From NCBI RefSeq assembly GCF_003790525.1, contig NZ_CP033635.1: a stretch of DNA of 64,000 bases; one strand, written 5' to 3'. The translations under genes and the position numbers were made by a program. The DNA comes from Escherichia coli (GTDB lineage: Bacteria; Pseudomonadota; Gammaproteobacteria; Enterobacterales; Enterobacteriaceae). Numbering within the stretch: the first letter of the stretch is position 1; each line of letters begins with the position of its first letter. The notes beneath the pieces were generated by a model. That model had not been told where the DNA came from. It did not search any database and saw only the letters and a list, made by a program, of their open reading frames with translations. This document shows positions 1 to 48,218 of this stretch, in pieces.

Positions 1-2101
1 CTCCGTAGAGGACGTAATTCAGACGCTGTTTGAAGCCATCGTATTGGTGGTTTGCGTGATGTATTTATTCCTGCAAAACCTGCGTGCCACACTGATTCCG
101 GCGTTAGCTGTCCCCGTCGTTTTGCTGGGCACATTCGGCGTTCTTGCGTTGTTTGGCTATTCGATTAATACCCTGACGTTGTTTGCAATGGTGCTGGCGA
201 TCGGCTTGCTGGTGGACGATGCCATTGTGGTGGTAGAGAACGTCGAACGCATTATGCGTGACGAAGGGTTGCCCGCGCGTGAAGCCACGGAAAAATCAAT
301 GGGCGAGATTTCTGGCGCACTGGTTGCCATTGCGCTGGTGTTGTCAGCCGTATTCCTGCCGATGGCCTTCTTTGGGGAATCTACGGGCGTAATTTATCGT
401 CAGTTCTCCATCACCATCATCTCCGCAATGCTGCTTTCCGTGGTGGTGGCATTGACCTTGACTCCCGCCCTGTGCGGTTCCGTCCTCCAGCATGTTCCGC
501 CACATAAAAAAGGCTTTTTCGGCGCATTTAACCGCTTTTACCGCCGTACTGAAGATAAATATCAGCGAGGCGTAATTTATGTCCTGCGCCGTGCAGCCCG
601 AACGATGGGGCTTTATGTCGTGCTGGGTGGTGGAATGGCCCTGATGATGTGGAAACTGCCCGGCAGTTTCTTACCCACTGAAGACCAGGGCGAAATCATG
701 GTGCAGTACACGCTGCCGGCCGGGGCGACCGCTGCCCGTACAGCAGAAGTGAATCGCCAGATTGTTGACTGGTTCCTGATTAACGAGAAAGCAAATACCG
801 ATGTCATCTTTACCGTTGATGGTTTCAGTTTTAGCGGCAGCGGACAGAACACCGGGATGGCGTTTGTTTCGTTGAAAAACTGGTCTCAACGTAAAGGGGC
901 AGAAAACACCGCCCAGGCTATCGCCCTACGGGCAACCAAAGAGCTGGGCACAATTCGTGATGCGACGGTATTTGCGATGACGCCGCCAGCCGTTGATGGG
1001 CTGGGGCAAAGCAATGGTTTTACGTTTGAATTGTTAGCTAACGGTGGAACCGATCGTGAAACACTGCTGCAAATGCGTAATCAGTTGATAGAAAAAGCGA
1101 ATCAAAGTCCGGAGTTACATTCTGTACGCGCCAATGATTTGCCACAAATGCCGCAATTGCAGGTAGATATTGATAGCAATAAAGCGGTGTCATTAGGGTT
1201 GAGTTTGAATGATGTCACCGACACCCTGTCCAGTGCGTGGGGCGGTACTTATGTGAATGACTTTATTGACCGTGGTCGTGTGAAAAAAGTCTACATTCAG
1301 GGCGACAGCGAATTTCGTTCCGCGCCGTCAGACTTAGGTAAATGGTTTGTGCGCGGTAGCGATAACGCTATGACACCATTCTCTGCTTTTGCGACCACCC
1401 GCTGGCTGTATGGACCGGAAAGACTGGTGCGCTACAACGGCTCGGCAGCCTATGAAATTCAGGGCGAAAACGCGACTGGCTTTAGTTCCGGCGATGCAAT
1501 GACAAAAATGGAGGAACTGGCAAACAGTCTTCCTGCGGGAACAACCTGGGCCTGGAGTGGTTTGTCATTGCAGGAGAAACTGGCCAGCGGTCAGGCATTA
1601 AGTCTGTATGCAGTTTCTATTCTGGTGGTTTTCCTCTGCCTTGCAGCACTGTACGAAAGCTGGTCAGTCCCGTTCTCGGTCATTCTGGTGATCCCTCTGG
1701 GGCTTCTTGGCGCGGCGCTGGCGGCCTGGATGCGTGATTTAAACAACGACGTTTACTTCCAGGTAGCGCTATTAACTACTATCGGCTTGTCATCGAAAAA
1801 CGCCATTCTGATTGTGGAATTTGCTGAAGCGGCGGTTGCAGAGGGCTATTCCTTGAGTCGTGCGGCATTACGCGCGGCGCAGACTCGTTTACGCCCAATC
1901 ATCATGACCTCGCTGGCGTTTATTGCGGGGGTAATGCCGCTGGCGATAGCAACTGGCGCAGGGGCGAACAGCCGCATCGCCATTGGTACGGGCATTATTG
2001 GCGGCACGCTGACCGCTACATTACTGGCCATTTTCTTCGTTCCTCTGTTTTTTGTACTGGTGAAACGTTTGTTTGCCGGTAAACCGCGCCGTCAGGAGTA
2101 A
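1..2101 (+). CDS. RND (HAE1-type) multidrug efflux permease, 5'-truncated by the window edge (C-terminal ~700 aa present)
   Basis: Open frame from nt 2 to TAA at 2099-2101; translation matches AcrB/MexB-like transporters by eye ([14 protein letters not shown] motif, hydrophobic C-terminal TM bundle). Frame runs off the left edge. Confidence 0.85.
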
Positions 2102-41642: not shown

Positions 41643-42608
41643 ATGAGAACCGTTAAGGTATTTGAGGAGGCCTGGCCCTTACATACCCCGTTTGTGATTG
41701 CTCGGGGAAGTCGCAGTGAAGCGCGCGTGGTGGTGGTTGAACTGGAAGAAGAAGGTATTAAAGGCACCGGTGAATGCACGCCGTATCCGCGTTATGGAGA
41801 AAGTGATGCCTCGGTAATGGCGCAAATTATGAGCGTCGTGCCGCAATTAGAGAAAGGGCTGACACGGGAGGAGTTGCAAAAAATCCTCCCTGCCGGCGCA
41901 GCACGTAATGCGCTGGATTGTGCATTGTGGGATCTGGCGGCGCGAAAACAGCAGCAATCGCTGGCTGCTTTGATCGGCATAACGCTTCCCGAGACAGTCA
42001 CCACGGCACAGACGATAGTCATCGGTACGCCTGATCAGATGGCCAATAGTGCATCAACACTCTGGCAGGCAGGCGCGAAATTACTGAAAGTGAAGCTGGA
42101 TAACCATCTTATCAGTGAGCGGATGGTGGCAATTCGCACCGCTGTGCCCGATGCGACGCTGATCGTTGATGCAAATGAATCCTGGCGTGCAGAAGGGTTG
42201 GCGGCGCGTTGCCAGCTATTGGCAGATTTAGGCGTTGCGATGCTTGAACAACCGCTTTCTGCGCAGGACGATGCGGCGCTGGAGAATTTTATTCATCCGT
42301 TACCGATTTGTGCTGATGAAAGTTGTCATACTCGTAGCAATCTGAAGGCGCTGAAAGGGCGCTATGAGATGGTTAACATTAAGCTTGATAAAACCGGTGG
42401 TCTGACGGAAGCGCTGGCGCTGGCGACTGAAGCGCGTGCACAAGGTTTTCGTCTGATGCTGGGCTGCATGTTGTGTACCTCTCGTGCCATTAGCGCCGCT
42501 TTACCGCTGGTGCCGCAGGTCAGTTTCGCCGATCTTGACGGACCGACCTGGCTGGCGGTAGATGTGGAACCGGCGCTTCAGTTCACGACGGGCGAATTGC
42601 ATCTTTAG
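41643..42608 (+). CDS. ycjG: L-Ala-D/L-Glu epimerase YcjG (enolase superfamily)
   Basis: Start set at MRTVKVFEE (321 aa). Confidence 0.88.
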   Translation: MRTVKVFEEAWPLHTPFVIARGSRSEARVVVVELEEEGIKGTGECTPYPRYGESDASVMAQIMSVVPQLEKGLTREELQKILPAGAARNALDCALWDLAARKQQQSLAALIGITLPETVTTAQTIVIGTPDQMANSASTLWQAGAKLLKVKLDNHLISERMVAIRTAVPDATLIVDANESWRAEGLAARCQLLADLGVAMLEQPLSAQDDAALENFIHPLPICADESCHTRSNLKALKGRYEMVNIKLDKTGGLTEALALATEARAQGFRLMLGCMLCTSRAISAALPLVPQVSFADLDGPTWLAVDVEPALQFTTGELHL

Positions 42609-43311
42609 GATGCCAGCGCAGCAAGTTTGCCATCGCAAAGAGATATTTTTCGCTGGCTTCGTCGGAGGAGATGGGTGGAAACTCTGCGGTGATGCAATGC
42701 AAGTTGAGATCTGCACACCAACTGCCGAAAGAGCCAGGTGTTTCATAACCGACGCTGGTTACCAGAGGCAATTCAAACGCCTGGGCCAGCCATTCACCTA
42801 ATTCGCTGTGTCTGGGATCTTCAATACAGGCCAGCGGATCGTGGAATGAGACCACCCAGGCAGGTTGAATGCGGTGTATAAGTTGGCACAGCGCCTGGGT
42901 TTCAGGTTCGGAGCCAGGTTTGCCACCTGTCAGTAAAACGACATCACGTTCTTCAGCGGCGCTGTTCCAGCGATAAACTGTTTCACCTTCCTTCCAGTTC
43001 GCTGCCGGAAAGTTTCGGTTTAAATCCACACCATTAGCATTGGCCCGTAACCCTAACTGGCAGCCGTCAGGATTCACACACAGCACCACATGATGGCGGC
43101 GCAAAGACGGTGTCAAAGTCCGCAGAGCACAGGAGAGCGTGACGATCGAAGAGTTTTCATCACCGTGAGTGCCAGCCAGAATCAAACCACTTTCGTGACT
43201 GGCTGCAGGGGCCGGAAACCAGATTAACGGCGCGCCCAATAATGAACGTCCGTAATGTTCTGTACCGGGCGGAAATGCGCCGCGTTCGGCGCGTGGGCGA
43301 GTTACGGTCAT
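42583..43311 (-). CDS. mpaA: Murein tripeptide amidase MpaA (M14 zinc carboxypeptidase-like)
   Basis: Start set at MTVTRPRAERG (242 aa); 3' end overlaps convergent ycjG by 26 nt. Confidence 0.85.
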   Translation of the reverse strand: MTVTRPRAERGAFPPGTEHYGRSLLGAPLIWFPAPAASHESGLILAGTHGDENSSIVTLSCALRTLTPSLRRHHVVLCVNPDGCQLGLRANANGVDLNRNFPAANWKEGETVYRWNSAAEERDVVLLTGGKPGSEPETQALCQLIHRIQPAWVVSFHDPLACIEDPRHSELGEWLAQAFELPLVTSVGYETPGSFGSWCADLNLHCITAEFPPISSDEASEKYLFAMANLLRWHPKDAIRPS

Positions 43312-43406
43312 GATCGTCTCTGGTTCAGGAAGTATTACAGGCAGTGTTGTGCAAATTTTGCGGATTATCAAATCCTTTTCTTCAACGCTATGTTATCGAT
43401 CTTGTA

Positions 43407-43431
43407 TCACTTTTTTGATGGAAGTTGTTTG
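43407..43431. promoter_or_regulatory. 25-bp motif, copy 1, upstream of mpaA
   Basis: TCACTTTTTTGATGGAAGTTGTTTG, identical to 46518-46542. Confidence 0.5.
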
Positions 43432-43557
43432 TATTTTCATTGATGTGCAGATATTAGAATTGTCGTAATGTTATATACATGGCGTATTTTATTCTTACTG
43501 GTTCTACACATGTTAATCGCATCTGATTGATCAGTTCACCTTAATAAGTTTAATAAA

Positions 43558-43582
43558 TCGTACTGCACATAGTACAGTACGA
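43558..43582 (-). terminator. Hairpin 3' of ymjC-like gene (probable operon terminator)
   Basis: 8-bp arms TCGTACTG/CAGTACGA with 9-nt loop, about 20 bp after the stop, followed on the minus strand by an A/U-rich tract. Confidence 0.4.
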
Positions 43583-43601
43583 TGGTAGCTATATAATTGA
43601 T

Positions 43602-44240
43602 TTACATGAAGAAGGGCTTATCACCATCAGTCCCGGGTTGATTGATGCCTATATTCTCACCAATGTGTTTCTCAGGTTTATCGATGATATCTGTGATTAA
43701 TGCTGCGACACTCTTACGTGATACGATCGTACCTTTGAATGGTTCATTGCGTGAGGTAAGCTCATAATCAATAATATCTTCATCAGTCAGCCAGGCAGGG
43801 CGAAGAATTGTATATTCCAGTCCAGAAGCCTCAATTGCATCCGCAGCCCTGCGGAATGGTTTTAGGGGTTCACCAATAACTGCATTATTCCATTCGCCAA
43901 ATTTTCCTGGAACTTCATCATAAATACCGAGGGAAAGAACAAAGATCAGACGTTTAACATCACAGGCTTTCATCGCAGCGATCACTGAATTTGCCTGAAT
44001 ATCTAAATCTTCCCCCGTAAGGTTGGCATACACAACATCCTGTCCCTGCATGGCCTGCTTCAGTGCTGCATGATTCAGTACATCCCCCATAATAATCTTG
44101 CTATTAGTTGGATAGGGTTTGTGGATTTTTGCTGGCTGACGGGCAAATAAAGTTTGTTTAATGGTTTGTTTATCTGCCAGTTGATTAATCACATGGCGGG
44201 CTATCTGACCGCCAGCACCAAGAATCAGTATATTTTTCAT
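43602..44240 (-). CDS. NAD(P)-binding NmrA/SDR-like protein (ymjC-like), intact
   Basis: 212-aa ORF with Rossmann motif ILGAGGQIA. Confidence 0.75.
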   Translation of the reverse strand: MKNILILGAGGQIARHVINQLADKQTIKQTLFARQPAKIHKPYPTNSKIIMGDVLNHAALKQAMQGQDVVYANLTGEDLDIQANSVIAAMKACDVKRLIFVLSLGIYDEVPGKFGEWNNAVIGEPLKPFRRAADAIEASGLEYTILRPAWLTDEDIIDYELTSRNEPFKGTIVSRKSVAALITDIIDKPEKHIGENIGINQPGTDGDKPFFM

Positions 44241-44311
44241 GAAACTTTTCCCAGATTATTGGCAGCAATATGCCAGGCCATATCACTATTACGGATTTGA
44301 ATATGTTTCAT
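44237..44311 (-). CDS. Candidate 24-codon bridging ORF between ycjY and ymjC-like gene
   Basis: ATG overlaps ycjY stop (TAATG); its TGA overlaps the ymjC-like ATG (ATGA); peptide MKHIQIRNSDMAWHIAANNLGKVS. Sequence-only inference. Confidence 0.3.
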   Translation of the reverse strand: MKHIQIRNSDMAWHIAANNLGKVS

Positions 44312-45231
44312 TACAGAGTTTCCTCAAAGAACGGAGCTAATACTGAAATTGCTTCAGCCACATAGACTTTGCCGTCATAAAGATCCATATGGTTTGCGCC
44401 TTCAACAATGTGATAGCGTTTATCCTTGCTTGATGCTCGATCGTACAGGTCGTCACTCATCCATTTGCTCCCAGCCTGGCTGCCCGCCACAATCTGTATC
44501 GGCTGAGTCAGGTACACTTCCGCCATATGGTAAGCATCATAGGTAATAATCTGGTTAAGGCTGCGCAAAGTAGCGTAACCCGGTGCTGTTGGATACTGCG
44601 CGCGAGGGGTGTGGTAATACTCCCAGGCCTGACGCAGTTCTTCGTTCGGCGCATCGGACTCCTTCATTGGTGCCAGTGGCATAGTGGCGTATTCTCCGCT
44701 GCTAATATCGCTGGTTCGGGCGTCTGAACCCGCGTCAACGTATGGTAGGGCATCAATAGATTTCACATTGTTTTCCCAACCATTACGGAACATCGAACCA
44801 ATATTGACCGCACTAACAGTACCGATGGCCTTGATGCGGCGATCCTGAATTGCAGCATTGGCTGTATATCCTGCTCCGGCACAAATTCCCATCGCACCAA
44901 TTCGGGTATTGTCGACATAAGAAAGCGTTGTCAGGTAATCAATCACGGCACTGACGTCTTCAGTACGAATGTATGGGTTTTCTAACTGACGCGGCTCGCC
45001 GCCGCTTTCACCTTGATAAGATGCGTCATAAGCAATAGTGACAAATCCCTTTTCCGCCAGTTTTTCGGCATAGGTTCCGGCCGTTTGCTCTTTAACGCCC
45101 CCACCTGGGTGAGATACCACAATTACCGGATACTGACGGGTTTCATCAAATTTTGGAGGGAAATAGATCACTGCAGACAAAGAGATGGTTGGATTATTGC
45201 TGTTAGTGAAGCTGACTTTATTATTCATCAT
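44311..45231 (-). CDS. ycjY: Alpha/beta-hydrolase YcjY
   Basis: Start set at MMNNKVSF (306 aa) with AGGAA upstream; nucleophile elbow GICAG. Confidence 0.82.
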   Translation of the reverse strand: MMNNKVSFTNSNNPTISLSAVIYFPPKFDETRQYPVIVVSHPGGGVKEQTAGTYAEKLAEKGFVTIAYDASYQGESGGEPRQLENPYIRTEDVSAVIDYLTTLSYVDNTRIGAMGICAGAGYTANAAIQDRRIKAIGTVSAVNIGSMFRNGWENNVKSIDALPYVDAGSDARTSDISSGEYATMPLAPMKESDAPNEELRQAWEYYHTPRAQYPTAPGYATLRSLNQIITYDAYHMAEVYLTQPIQIVAGSQAGSKWMSDDLYDRASSKDKRYHIVEGANHMDLYDGKVYVAEAISVLAPFFEETL

Positions 45232-45301
45232 TCCGTTCCTCATGGAGTTGTCGGTTCGTTTTAACGGTTGGTGATATCACTATAGATATTGATCATTAAG
45301 T

Positions 45302-45346
45302 TGATTAGACCCAAAATCATGATTAGACCTATCATTTAAATGATTA
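45302..45346. promoter_or_regulatory. Direct TGATTA(GACC) repeats in divergent ycjY-ycjZ promoter
   Basis: TGATTAGACC at 45302 and 45320, TGATTA at 45341 (18-21 bp spacing); typical position for a LysR-type operator. Confidence 0.35.
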
Positions 45347-45368
45347 ATAGATTGTATGGAGATACTGA

Positions 45369-46268
45369 ATGAAGCGTGAAGAAATCGCTGATCTGATGGC
45401 GTTTGTCGTTGTTGCAGAGGAGCGTAGCTTCACTCGCGCAGCAGCCCGCCTGAGCATGGCGCAGTCAGCTTTAAGCCAGATAGTGCGCCGTATAGAAGAA
45501 CGATTGGGATTGCGGCTTCTGACGCGAACCACGCGCAGCGTTGTACCCACTGAAGCGGGCGAGCATCTTTTGTCTGTTCTTGGCCCTATGTTGCATGACA
45601 TAGATTCTGCCCTGACATCCCTGAGCGATCTGCAGAACCGCCCATCCGGGACAATACGTATTACTACTGTAGAACATGCAGCAAAAACGATATTGTTACC
45701 AGCTATGCGCACATTCCTGAAATCGCATCCTGAAATTGATATTCAGCTTACCATTGATTATGGTTTGACCGATGTCGTTTCTGAACGTTTTGATGCAGGC
45801 GTCCGTCTGGGTGGGGAGATGGATAAAGATATGATCGCCATTCGAATCGGGCCAGACATACCAATGGCTATTGTTGGCTCACCGGATTATTTTTCTCGTC
45901 GAAGTGCTCCAACGTCAGTGTCACAATTAATAGATCATCAGGCAATTAATTTGTATCTTCCCACATCGGGTACAGCAAATCGCTGGAGATTAATACGCGG
46001 TGGACGTGAAGTTCGTGTTCGCATGGAAGGTCAGCTTTTACTGAATACGATAGACCTGATCATTGATGCTGCAATTGATGGGCATGGATTGGCGTATCTA
46101 CCTTATGATCAGGTTGAGCGGGCTATTAAAGAAAAAAAACTGATACGTGTTTTGGATAAATTCACACCAGATTTACCCGGTTATCACCTGTACTATCCAC
46201 ACCGTCGACATGCTGGCTCGGCATTCTCATTATTTATAGATAGGCTGAAGTATAAAGGTGCTGTTTAG
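45369..46268 (+). CDS. ycjZ: LysR-family regulator YcjZ
   Basis: 299-aa ORF with N-terminal LysR HTH (SFTRAAARLSMAQSALSQ). Confidence 0.88.
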   Translation: MKREEIADLMAFVVVAEERSFTRAAARLSMAQSALSQIVRRIEERLGLRLLTRTTRSVVPTEAGEHLLSVLGPMLHDIDSALTSLSDLQNRPSGTIRITTVEHAAKTILLPAMRTFLKSHPEIDIQLTIDYGLTDVVSERFDAGVRLGGEMDKDMIAIRIGPDIPMAIVGSPDYFSRRSAPTSVSQLIDHQAINLYLPTSGTANRWRLIRGGREVRVRMEGQLLLNTIDLIIDAAIDGHGLAYLPYDQVERAIKEKKLIRVLDKFTPDLPGYHLYYPHRRHAGSAFSLFIDRLKYKGAV

Positions 46269-46517
46269 CACTACTTGCTGATACATTAATTTAATTCTTC
46301 TCTTAACGTATTCTCAGTTCCTTTCAACGTTTTGGTTATTTTTTATTCTTCGCACAATGGCGACAGATGCTGATTATGATACCGAAAACGGGTTTGAACG
46401 TGCGAAGCCCGAACGTAGTGTTCGGAGTTCTATGTGCTTTACCGCATTTTGGAGACTATTATTTACACTAAATCTGATTTGATATATTGATACTTAAAAC
46501 ATTTGATGCTTCCTTTG

Positions 46518-46542
46518 TCACTTTTTTGATGGAAGTTGTTTG
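46518..46542. promoter_or_regulatory. 25-bp motif, copy 2, upstream of mppA
   Basis: TCACTTTTTTGATGGAAGTTGTTTG, 63-87 bp upstream of mppA ATG. Confidence 0.5.
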
Positions 46543-46604
46543 CATTTCTTTAAGGCGAAACAAATAATTACGCATCAATTTTAATGTCGGTTAGAGGGAA
46601 ACTT

Positions 46605-48218
46605 ATGAAGCACTCTGTTTCAGTCACGTGTTGTGTGCTGTTGGTCAGCAGCATTTCTCTTTCGTATGCTGCTGAAGTTCCGAGCGGCACAGTACTGGCA
46701 GAGAAGCAGGAGCTGGTGCGCCACATTAAAGATGAGCCAGCGTCGCTGGATCCCGCTAAAGCCGTGGGCCTGCCGGAGATTCAGGTCATTCGCGATCTGT
46801 TTGAAGGACTGGTGAATCAGAACGAGAAAGGGGAGATTGTCCCCGGCGTTGCGACTCAGTGGAAAAGTAATGACAGCCGTATCTGGACTTTTACCCTGCG
46901 CGATAACGCAAAATGGGCGGATGGCACACCGGTAACGGCGCAAGATTTTGTCTACAGCTGGCAACGTCTGGTGGACCCGAAAACGCTATCGCCATTTGCA
47001 TGGTTTGCCGCGCTGGCGGGAATCAACAACGCACAGGCGATTATTGATGGTAAAGCCACGCCTGACCAGCTTGGCGTCACCGCAGTTGATGCCCATACTT
47101 TGAAAATCCAGCTTGATAAACCATTGCCGTGGTTTGTGAATTTAACCGCTAACTTTGCCTTCTTCCCGGTGCAAAAAGCCAACGTAGAAAGCAGTAAAGA
47201 GTGGACGAAACCCGGAAATCTGATCGGCAATGGCGCTTATGTTCTTAAAGAGCGCGTAGTCAATGAAAAACTGGTCGTAGTGCCGAATACCCATTATTGG
47301 GATAACGCCAAAACGGTACTGCAAAAAGTGACCTTCCTGCCAATTAATCAGGAATCCGCAGCCACTAAGCGTTATCTCGCGGGGGATATTGATATCACCG
47401 AATCCTTCCCGAAAAATATGTATCAGAAGTTGTTGAAGGATATTCCGGGGCAGGTTTATACGCCGCCGCAGCTCGGGACCTATTATTATGCGTTTAACAC
47501 GCAAAAAGGGCCGACGGCAGATCAGCGCGTTCGCCTGGCATTAAGTATGACGATAGATCGCCGCCTGATGACCGAAAAAGTGTTGGGGACGGGCGAAAAG
47601 CCAGCGTGGCATTTTACACCAGATGTTACCGCGGGATTTACGCCGGAACCTTCGCCGTTTGAACAAATGAGTCAGGAAGAACTGAATGCGCAGGCAAAAA
47701 CTTTGTTGAGCGCAGCTGGTTATGGTCCGCAAAAACCGCTGAAGTTGACGCTTTTGTATAACACTTCAGAAAACCATCAAAAAATTGCGATTGCTGTAGC
47801 ATCGATGTGGAAAAAGAACCTGGGCGTAGATGTTAAATTGCAAAACCAGGAATGGAAAACCTATATCGATAGCCGTAATACCGGCAATTTTGATGTTATC
47901 CGCGCCTCGTGGGTAGGGGATTATAATGACCCCTCCACTTTCCTGACATTATTAACGTCAACGCATTCCGGGAATATTTCACGCTTTAACAATCCGGCAT
48001 ATGACAAAGTTCTGGCCCAGGCATCGACGGAAAATACCGTTAAAGCGCGTAATGCCGATTACAACGCGGCAGAAAAAATCCTCATGGAGCAAGCACCGAT
48101 TGCACCAATTTATCAATATACCAATGGACGATTAATCAAGCCGTGGCTGAAAGGTTATCCCATTAATAACCCTGAAGATGTGGCGTACAGTCGGACTATG
48201 TATATTGTGAAGCATTGA
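46605..48218 (+). CDS. mppA: Periplasmic murein tripeptide-binding protein MppA
   Basis: Start set at MKHSVSVT (537 aa) with GAGGGAA RBS; signal peptide; OppA-like. Confidence 0.9.
   Translation: MKHSVSVTCCVLLVSSISLSYAAEVPSGTVLAEKQELVRHIKDEPASLDPAKAVGLPEIQVIRDLFEGLVNQNEKGEIVPGVATQWKSNDSRIWTFTLRDNAKWADGTPVTAQDFVYSWQRLVDPKTLSPFAWFAALAGINNAQAIIDGKATPDQLGVTAVDAHTLKIQLDKPLPWFVNLTANFAFFPVQKANVESSKEWTKPGNLIGNGAYVLKERVVNEKLVVVPNTHYWDNAKTVLQKVTFLPINQESAATKRYLAGDIDITESFPKNMYQKLLKDIPGQVYTPPQLGTYYYAFNTQKGPTADQRVRLALSMTIDRRLMTEKVLGTGEKPAWHFTPDVTAGFTPEPSPFEQMSQEELNAQAKTLLSAAGYGPQKPLKLTLLYNTSENHQKIAIAVASMWKKNLGVDVKLQNQEWKTYIDSRNTGNFDVIRASWVGDYNDPSTFLTLLTSTHSGNISRFNNPAYDKVLAQASTENTVKARNADYNAAEKILMEQAPIAPIYQYTNGRLIKPWLKGYPINNPEDVAYSRTMYIVKH

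Follow-up and report, generated by a model that had tools for sequence, protein, structure and literature searches.

The stretch between the hydrolase gene ycjY and the adjoining reductase gene of Escherichia coli raises the question of how an open reading frame of only 24 codons comes to overlap both of its neighbours, and whether such a frame is a small gene in its own right, a device for handing over ribosomes or the residue of something larger. We analyzed this locus in a window of 64,000 nucleotides of E. coli contig NZ_CP033635.1 (assembly GCF_003790525.1), within which the ~2 kb surrounding the small ORF match E. coli SMS-3-5 (NC_010498.1) with 100% identity; all positions given below are those of this window [Table 1]. 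From the sequence and the ORF list, the ycjY ORF, the 24-codon ORF and the 212-aa ORF are all carried by the minus strand, and hence the hydrolase and the ymjC-like gene are co-directional, as a preliminary description of this DNA had it. The two overlaps claimed there for the 24-codon ORF are exact as well; the A at 44311 is common to the stop codon TAA of ycjY (last base) and the ATG of the small ORF (first base), giving TAATG, and bases 44239-44238 are common to the TGA of the small ORF and the ATG of the reductase gene, giving ATGA. A small correction concerns the hydrolase, as RefSeq and the crystal-structure chain 5XB6 place the start of YcjY (306 aa) at 45231, and the ATG of the longest ORF at 45243 falls within the Shine-Dalgarno (SD) sequence of that start. 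By a rough estimate, a double overlap would be expected by chance in ~0.2% of spacers of this length. Chance is not the reason here, because the geometry was in all likelihood inherited from a deleted gene; the best overall explanation is that the 24-codon ORF (product MKHIQIRNSDMAWHIAANNLGKVS) is very probably the fossil of an in-frame deletion in a second hydrolase gene, hyd2, and not a purpose-built gene.

Table 1. Coordinates of the features of the ycjY-SDR locus in the window, with strand and basis of assignment.
Feature	Position	Strand	Basis
37-nt direct repeat, right copy, upstream of mpaA	43400..43436	.	Repeat search; empty-site comparison
12-bp hairpin just past the SDR stop, weak terminator candidate	43557..43583	-	Fold of 76-nt segment
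212-aa NAD(P)H-binding atypical SDR (full-length ymjC)	43602..44240	-	Pfam, PDB, RefSeq
24-codon ORF, K-12 ymjD orthologue, very probably an in-frame deletion remnant of hyd2	44237..44311	-	Alignment with hyd2 and YmjD
AAA (Lys22) replacing the stop TAA of hyd2/K-12 ymjD	44246..44248	-	Alignment; frame extends to TGA 44239-44237
Junction of 867-nt in-frame deletion, inside codon 19	44256..44257	-	SMS-3-5 and K-12 aligned to O157/ETEC/STEC three-gene loci
ycjY, alpha/beta hydrolase, 306 aa, G-I-C-A-G nucleophile elbow	44311..45231	-	RefSeq, Pfam, PDB 5XB6, translation
ycjY ORF, longest form	45243..44311	-	ORF list
pgrR (ycjZ), LysR-type regulator, divergent from ycjY, in the inserted cassette	45369..46268	+	RefSeq
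QueH pseudogene fragment in the cassette, between pgrR and the left repeat	46366..46440	+	Annotated in ETEC/STEC records; 94.7% identical stretch in the window
37-nt direct repeat, left copy, upstream of mppA	46511..46547	.	Repeat search; empty-site comparison

The evidence for a deletion comes from other E. coli, in which hyd2, a paralogue of ycjY (933 nt, 310 aa, 41% identity to YcjY), lies between ycjY and the SDR gene; in O157:H7 PA20 (where hyd2 is frameshifted), ETEC4088 and STEC316 it occupies this place and begins on the same TAATG. In the nucleotide alignment and the translations, codons 1-18 of the small ORF are identical to codons 1-18 of hyd2, codon 19 (AAT) is a hybrid composed of the A of hyd2 codon 19 and the AT of hyd2 codon 308, and the CTG GGA (Leu-Gly) that follows represents the final two codons of hyd2, read in frame. 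The missing segment begins with base 2 of hyd2 codon 19 and ends with base 1 of codon 308; it measures 867 nt, which corresponds to 289 codons, and the deletion is therefore in frame. The pieces of hyd2 left behind are the ribosome-binding site, the start codon, 18 N-terminal codons, the hybrid Asn codon, Leu-Gly and the stop. SMS-3-5 and K-12 share an identical junction (GCCAATA joined to ATCTGGGA), suggesting that the deletion occurred once. The 3' end of the scar accounts for the second overlap. Intact hyd2 ends in CTG GGA TAA GTT TCA TGA, the scar of K-12 in CTG GGA TAA TTT and that of SMS-3-5 in CTG GGA AAA GTT TCA TGA, so that the ATGA overlap exists because the TAA of the scar has become AAA and reading goes on for three codons to the TGA within the SDR start context. 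This ATGA end is confined to the haplotype with the TAA to AAA change, and K-12-type genomes stop three codons earlier. The near-repeats ATGAGAAATATT and ATGAAAAATGTA differ by 12 nt, which explains the closer SDR start of the deleted haplotypes, where the ATG stands five bases past the scar TAA.

The comparison with the K-12 annotation of ymjC and ymjD, which the preliminary description had suggested, identifies the small ORF as the orthologue of an annotated gene. NC_000913 carries ymjD (b4673; 66 nt, 21 aa) starting on the ycjY stop, and its peptide MKHIQIRNSDMDWHIAANNLG shares 20 of 21 residues with the SMS-3-5 frame, A12D being the sole difference. EcoGene is reported to class ymjD as an 'expressed deletion fragment pseudogene'. 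The adjoining gene has fared worse in K-12, where a second deletion of 665 nt has removed SDR codons 47-212 together with 164 nt of downstream spacer. The preliminary description of ymjC as a remnant in K-12 was correct, as it is a C-terminally truncated pseudogene with 46 codons kept, labelled by PGAP as 'NAD-dependent dehydratase, missing C-terminus'. The supplement of a Ribo-seq study lists the K-12 gene, with the same peptide, as a 'previously known sORF' (PMC10746267).

In the window, the ymjC-like gene had been described as encoding a full 212-aa NAD(P)-binding protein, and RefSeq indeed records an intact 'SDR family oxidoreductase'. The protein matches Pfam PF13460 NAD_binding_10 over model positions 1-184 of 184 (E=3.4e-54), its residues 8-14 (GAGGQIA, from the translation) form the N-terminal glycine-rich dinucleotide-binding motif, and in the PDB it has an almost identical counterpart, 3QVO 'NmrA family protein' (E=3.5e-138). 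Among E. coli haplotypes, the hyd2-deleted lineage included, the pN/pS of the SDR is 0.05-0.2, which is indicative of purifying selection. The 76-nt segment 43530-43605 with the hairpin just past the SDR stop folds at -17.2 kcal/mol; the consensus terminator scan did not call this hairpin, and in K-12 it is removed by the 665-nt deletion. Both hydrolases match Peptidase_S15, DLH and Abhydrolase_1 in Pfam (alpha/beta-hydrolase fold, dienelactone-hydrolase-like), and in their translations the nucleophile elbow G-x-C-x-G reads G-I-C-A-G in YcjY and G-V-C-G-G in hyd2, making both of the Cys type; the GXCXG motif of YcjY has been noted before (PMC3709699). YcjY corresponds to PDB 5XB6 'Uncharacterized protein YcjY' (E=2e-199), and overexpression of ycjY led to filamentation in one screen (PMC3614548). 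The NCBIfam search with YcjY, hyd2 and the SDR gave no model at its cut-off. The best match there, the UilS lactonase, scored 88 bits against a cut-off of 400 bits and was rejected, and no substrate was assigned.

The genes pgrR-ycjY-(hyd2)-SDR are a horizontally acquired four-gene cassette. The pgrR-to-SDR segment has a G+C content of 43.9%, whereas the window as a whole stands at 51.1% and mpaA and ycjG at 54%. It is bracketed by two copies of a 37-nt direct repeat (89% identity, spacing 3111 nt), and empty-site strains (e.g., MSB1_4I) have one repeat copy that joins the mppA-proximal and mpaA-proximal flanks exactly. This repeat was not found in the Klebsiella plasmid or Pseudocitrobacter loci described below. 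The order LysR<>hyd1-hyd2-SDR occurs in Pseudocitrobacter (92/85/83% aa identity), in Afipia, Mesorhizobium, Hyphomicrobium, Paraburkholderia, Caballeronia, Achromobacter and Stenotrophomonas (alpha- and beta-proteobacteria among them) and also in Bacteroidota. A conjugative IncF plasmid of Klebsiella pneumoniae carries the four genes at unchanged lengths, with hyd1 and hyd2 again overlapping by one base and with an IS110 transposase alongside, and the N-terminus of its hyd2 reads MKHVQIQNADMAWHIAAS. The occurrence of the two-hydrolase order across taxa and on a plasmid indicates that the two-hydrolase state is ancestral and the short frame derived; the reverse polarity, in which hyd2 would have been inserted into an older small ORF, was ruled out since the two-hydrolase order spans phyla and plasmids. 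Outside Enterobacteriaceae, the hydrolase genes are 25-140 nt apart, which makes the TAATG overlap an enterobacterial feature. No counterpart of the short frame was found outside E. coli, i.e., in 80 loci of other taxa and the Klebsiella plasmid, and the scan of genome contigs with the SDR returned no match from any other Escherichia species. Some modules contain extra genes, namely those for a carboxymuconolactone-decarboxylase-family protein and a classical SDR in Stenotrophomonas and for a cupin in Chryseobacterium, all below curated cut-offs.

The origin of the cassette bears on a further suggestion of the preliminary description, that a hydrolase and a reductase next to murein-peptide genes hint at an uncharacterised catabolic step. 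As the cassette was inserted between mppA and mpaA, its adjacency to murein-peptide genes is an accident and should not guide functional hypotheses. No homologue of mpaA, mppA or ycjG was found near the hydrolase/SDR module in 80 loci from other taxa, and its neighbours on the Klebsiella plasmid are the IS110 transposase and unrelated genes. In the literature on K-12, ycjG, ycjXF-tyrR and ycjY-ymjDC-mpaA are assigned to the PgrR regulon (PMC5934670; PMC3946193). The 665-nt deletion in K-12 puts mpaA closer to the ycjY operon.

We then estimated the frequency of each state of the locus in 5426 complete E. coli genomes, where the scar counts, obtained from megablast seeds of short allele-specific probes, are approximate. 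The 21-codon K-12-type scar was found in 2296 genomes, the 24-codon scar in 1517 (1401 of them exact matches), and the 310-codon hyd2 in 1283 (~24%), while in 192 the cassette is absent and mppA and mpaA are divergently adjacent. The species is therefore polymorphic for four cassette states, viz., an empty site, a LysR gene with two hydrolase genes and the SDR gene, the same with hyd2 deleted, and the same with both hyd2 and the SDR gene deleted; results on 'ycjY-ymjDC-mpaA' obtained in K-12 concern the most decayed of these. The frame is thus not conserved at one length, and it is missing altogether in ~27% of E. coli, where hyd2 is intact or the cassette is absent. Among the matches listed, the 24-codon scar always adjoins an intact SDR gene and the 21-codon scar a truncated one, with a single exception that has no feature under the match and represents an IS1 insertion between ymjD and ymjC. 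Stops in close relatives, which the preliminary description named as evidence against its reading, do occur, though they count against it only weakly; two genomes have TGG changed to TAG at scar codon 13, and about 99% of the ~1517 genomes with this haplotype have an open frame. In GTEN_23, the one of the two nonsense genomes that was inspected, the SDR gene is still annotated as intact. The sample also contains an A16T allele, and the changes observed in the scar amount to one synonymous, two non-synonymous, one nonsense and one stop-loss change. Between SMS-3-5 and K-12, 4 of 70 nt differ in the scar, compared with 20 of 921 nt for ycjY and 2 of 138 nt for the 5' part of the SDR gene; this faster divergence than in the neighbours would fit relaxed constraint, the numbers being small.

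The scar has retained signals of translation. GAGGA stands at -14 to -10 of its start with a calculated anti-SD pairing of -6.2 kcal/mol, against -6.9 for the start of ycjY itself, and the SDR start has a weak calculated SD (-4.2 kcal/mol) provided by CTGGGA, that is, by the Leu-Gly codons of the scar. With the ribosome-binding site of hyd2 kept and that of the SDR weak, passive translational coupling is plausible. Ribosomes that end ycjY, or that bind the retained GAGGA, would translate the scar and terminate on or beside the weak SDR start, and the SDR would in this manner stay translationally coupled to ycjY as it earlier was to hyd2. A hand-over of this kind, with the short frame as the link between ycjY and the SDR start, is mechanistically plausible. 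The scar is probably translated, and its translation may contribute materially to the expression of the SDR, which we put forward tentatively; that the scar peptide has a function of its own is very improbable. The consensus scan for promoters and terminators gave counts at or under the shuffle expectation.

The deletion fossil has to be weighed against readings in which the frame does more, or less, than a remnant would. If it were an untranslated spacer that happens to stay open, its shortness would leave few chances to gain stops. No RNA structure or Rfam family lies there: the Rfam scan of 42500-47000 at E<=1 gave no RNA element (only a sub-threshold RAGATH-10 match inside pgrR), and the ycjY-scar-SDR junction, which folds less stably than its shuffled versions (z=+1.4), reveals no regulatory structure. 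However, this spacer would have kept the SD and the stop-start overlap of a former full-length gene, and its K-12 orthologue figures as a known sORF in the ymjD entry of the Ribo-seq supplement (PMC10746267), and we consider this reading unlikely. At the other extreme, an independently functional small protein, YmjD, would suit the protein-coding annotation in K-12 and the same Ribo-seq entry, but the peptide is made up of residues 1-18 of a hydrolase, one residue from the junction codon and Leu-Gly; both its length and its sequence are variable (A12D, A16T, 21 versus 24 aa, the nonsense allele), and genomes with an intact hyd2 or without the cassette do not have it at all. This makes the proposal hardly credible, and the notion of a dedicated, conserved small gene gives way to that of a scar, of differing length among haplotypes, left by a second hydrolase gene.

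A selected coupling relay, improved by the TAA to AAA change because synthesis of the SDR needs ribosomes delivered through the short frame, is in our view quite improbable. The weakness of the SDR start, whose SD is made by the last codons of the scar, the purifying selection on the SDR, the pairing of 24-codon scars with intact and (bar one) of 21-codon scars with truncated SDR genes among the matches listed, and a frame interrupted in just 2 of about 1517 genomes are all in accordance with such a relay. Nevertheless, the K-12-type frame stops 5 nt short of the same ATG, a coupling-competent distance that also permits reinitiation, and so the ATGA adds little and selection on it need not be invoked. 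The pairing comes down to a single haplotype in each clade, without independent replication; the SDR gene of GTEN_23 is annotated as intact despite the codon-13 stop, divergence is faster in the scar region than on either side of it, and the frame has no counterpart outside E. coli. The related idea that the dead hyd2 start was co-opted as a coupling leader for a functional SDR, the TAA to AAA change being adaptive in the SDR-intact lineage, is decidedly unlikely; if true, the leader would be a natural pseudogene remnant retained for its translation and not for its product. Some observations do count against the in-frame deletion fossil of hyd2. A frame open in nearly all genomes also fits selection, within-species diversity being too low to tell; an unselected deletion has a one-in-three chance of being in frame; and the pairing of the 24-codon scar with an intact SDR could hint at selection for the ATGA, although it is fully confounded with phylogeny. 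The case serves mostly as a caution, in that a frame this short with an overlap on either side gives an impression of design and yet is, in this reading, the scar of an in-frame gene deletion.

The 24-codon ORF is already known in kind, since K-12 has annotated ymjD and ymjC genes and other E. coli genomes have annotated genes for the hydrolase and the SDR; its match to a catalogued K-12 gene makes the finding real but ordinary. With the K-12 ymjD/ymjC pair it shares the position between ycjY and mpaA, the TAATG start and the deletion junction. It differs in that ymjD ends on TAA after 21 aa, 5 nt ahead of the ymjC ATG, whereas the SMS-3-5 frame reads AAA, runs for 24 codons and ends in ATGA; codons 1-46 of K-12 ymjC (b4525) equal the first 46 codons of the SDR gene, which is whole in SMS-3-5. 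The three-gene ycjY-hyd2-SDR loci (O157/ETEC/STEC, Klebsiella IncF plasmids, Pseudocitrobacter) have in common with it the LysR regulator, ycjY, the TAATG and the SDR, and their hyd2 N-terminus corresponds to the first 18 codons of the small ORF, MKH(I/V)QI(R/Q)N(S/A)DMAWHIAA(N/S); they differ by 933 nt of hyd2 in place of 66 nt plus the 3-codon read-through of SMS-3-5, and by 12 extra nt ahead of the annotated SDR start. The intact module is present on conjugative Klebsiella plasmids and across phyla, and both E. coli proteins have crystal structures. Stop-start overlaps such as TAATG and ATGA are the classical arrangement of translational coupling in bacterial operons. The present locus, as known from its sequence, resembles that arrangement in the overlap geometry at both ends of the short frame and in the weak downstream SD, and departs from it in that the intermediate cistron is itself the remnant of a gene.

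The pgrR-ycjY-scar-SDR cassette, in which the scar is the 24-codon in-frame remnant of the second hydrolase gene hyd2 and SDR encodes a 212-aa NAD(P)H-binding reductase, spans 3.1 kb and is enclosed by the two copies of a direct repeat (see table). We found the corresponding empty site, with a single repeat copy and with mppA and mpaA adjoining, in 192 complete E. coli genomes; this arrangement may be ancestral, or else it may have been restored via recombination between the repeats. The G+C content of the cassette (window 43437-46510) is 43.9%, as against 51.1% in the window. Proteins of Afipia and Hyphomicrobium share 84% amino-acid identity with YcjY, and conjugative IncF plasmids of Klebsiella carry the whole four-gene module (LysR regulator, two hydrolases and SDR) at ∼79% DNA identity. 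Taken jointly, these compositional and similarity data are indicative of a recent horizontal spread of the module. Between pgrR and the left copy of the repeat, the cassette also contains a pseudogene fragment of QueH (epoxyqueuosine reductase), which may be a leftover of the donor context.

Coordinates of features in the cassette and its comparison loci
Feature	Location	Strand	Remarks
37-nt direct repeat, right copy	window 43400-43436		89% identity between copies
37-nt direct repeat, left copy	window 46511-46547		89% identity between copies
QueH pseudogene fragment, 75 nt	window 46366-46440	+	annotated in ETEC and STEC records
hyd2 frameshift	about 4435 in O157:H7 PA20 locus		within run of nine G
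IS1 element	HCP30S3_I2 locus 1291-1988		after ymjD stop, before ymjC start; one K-12-type genome

RefSeq and the 306-residue crystal-structure chain both begin YcjY at the ATG at window 45231 (minus strand). The first ATG of the ycjY ORF, at 45243, falls inside the Shine-Dalgarno sequence (GAGGA) belonging to that start and is probably not the true one. As for hyd2, the nine-G run in O157:H7 is part of the codons for its GVCGGGG catalytic motif. The length of this run appears to differ among O157-type strains, as suggested by the matches to the 851-nt hyd2 query, which cover 852, 853 or 854 nt in O157-type records. An intact hyd2 was also observed in NZ_CM135829.1, a 4.83 Mb record labelled 'strain DH5alpha', while K-12 derivatives are without intact hyd2; either the strain label or the assembly of this record is probably wrong.

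The IS1 insertion in HCP30S3_I2 is a further decay of the ymjD-ymjC locus, ymjD and ymjC being the K-12 counterparts of the scar and SDR. The K-12 loci themselves have undergone a second deletion, of 665 nt (window 43439-44102), which extends from codon 47 of SDR to 127 nt upstream of mpaA, ends just short of the right repeat copy, and has removed the hairpin that follows SDR. Therefore, the published 'ycjY-ymjDC-mpaA operon' may be peculiar to the K-12 deletion haplotype.
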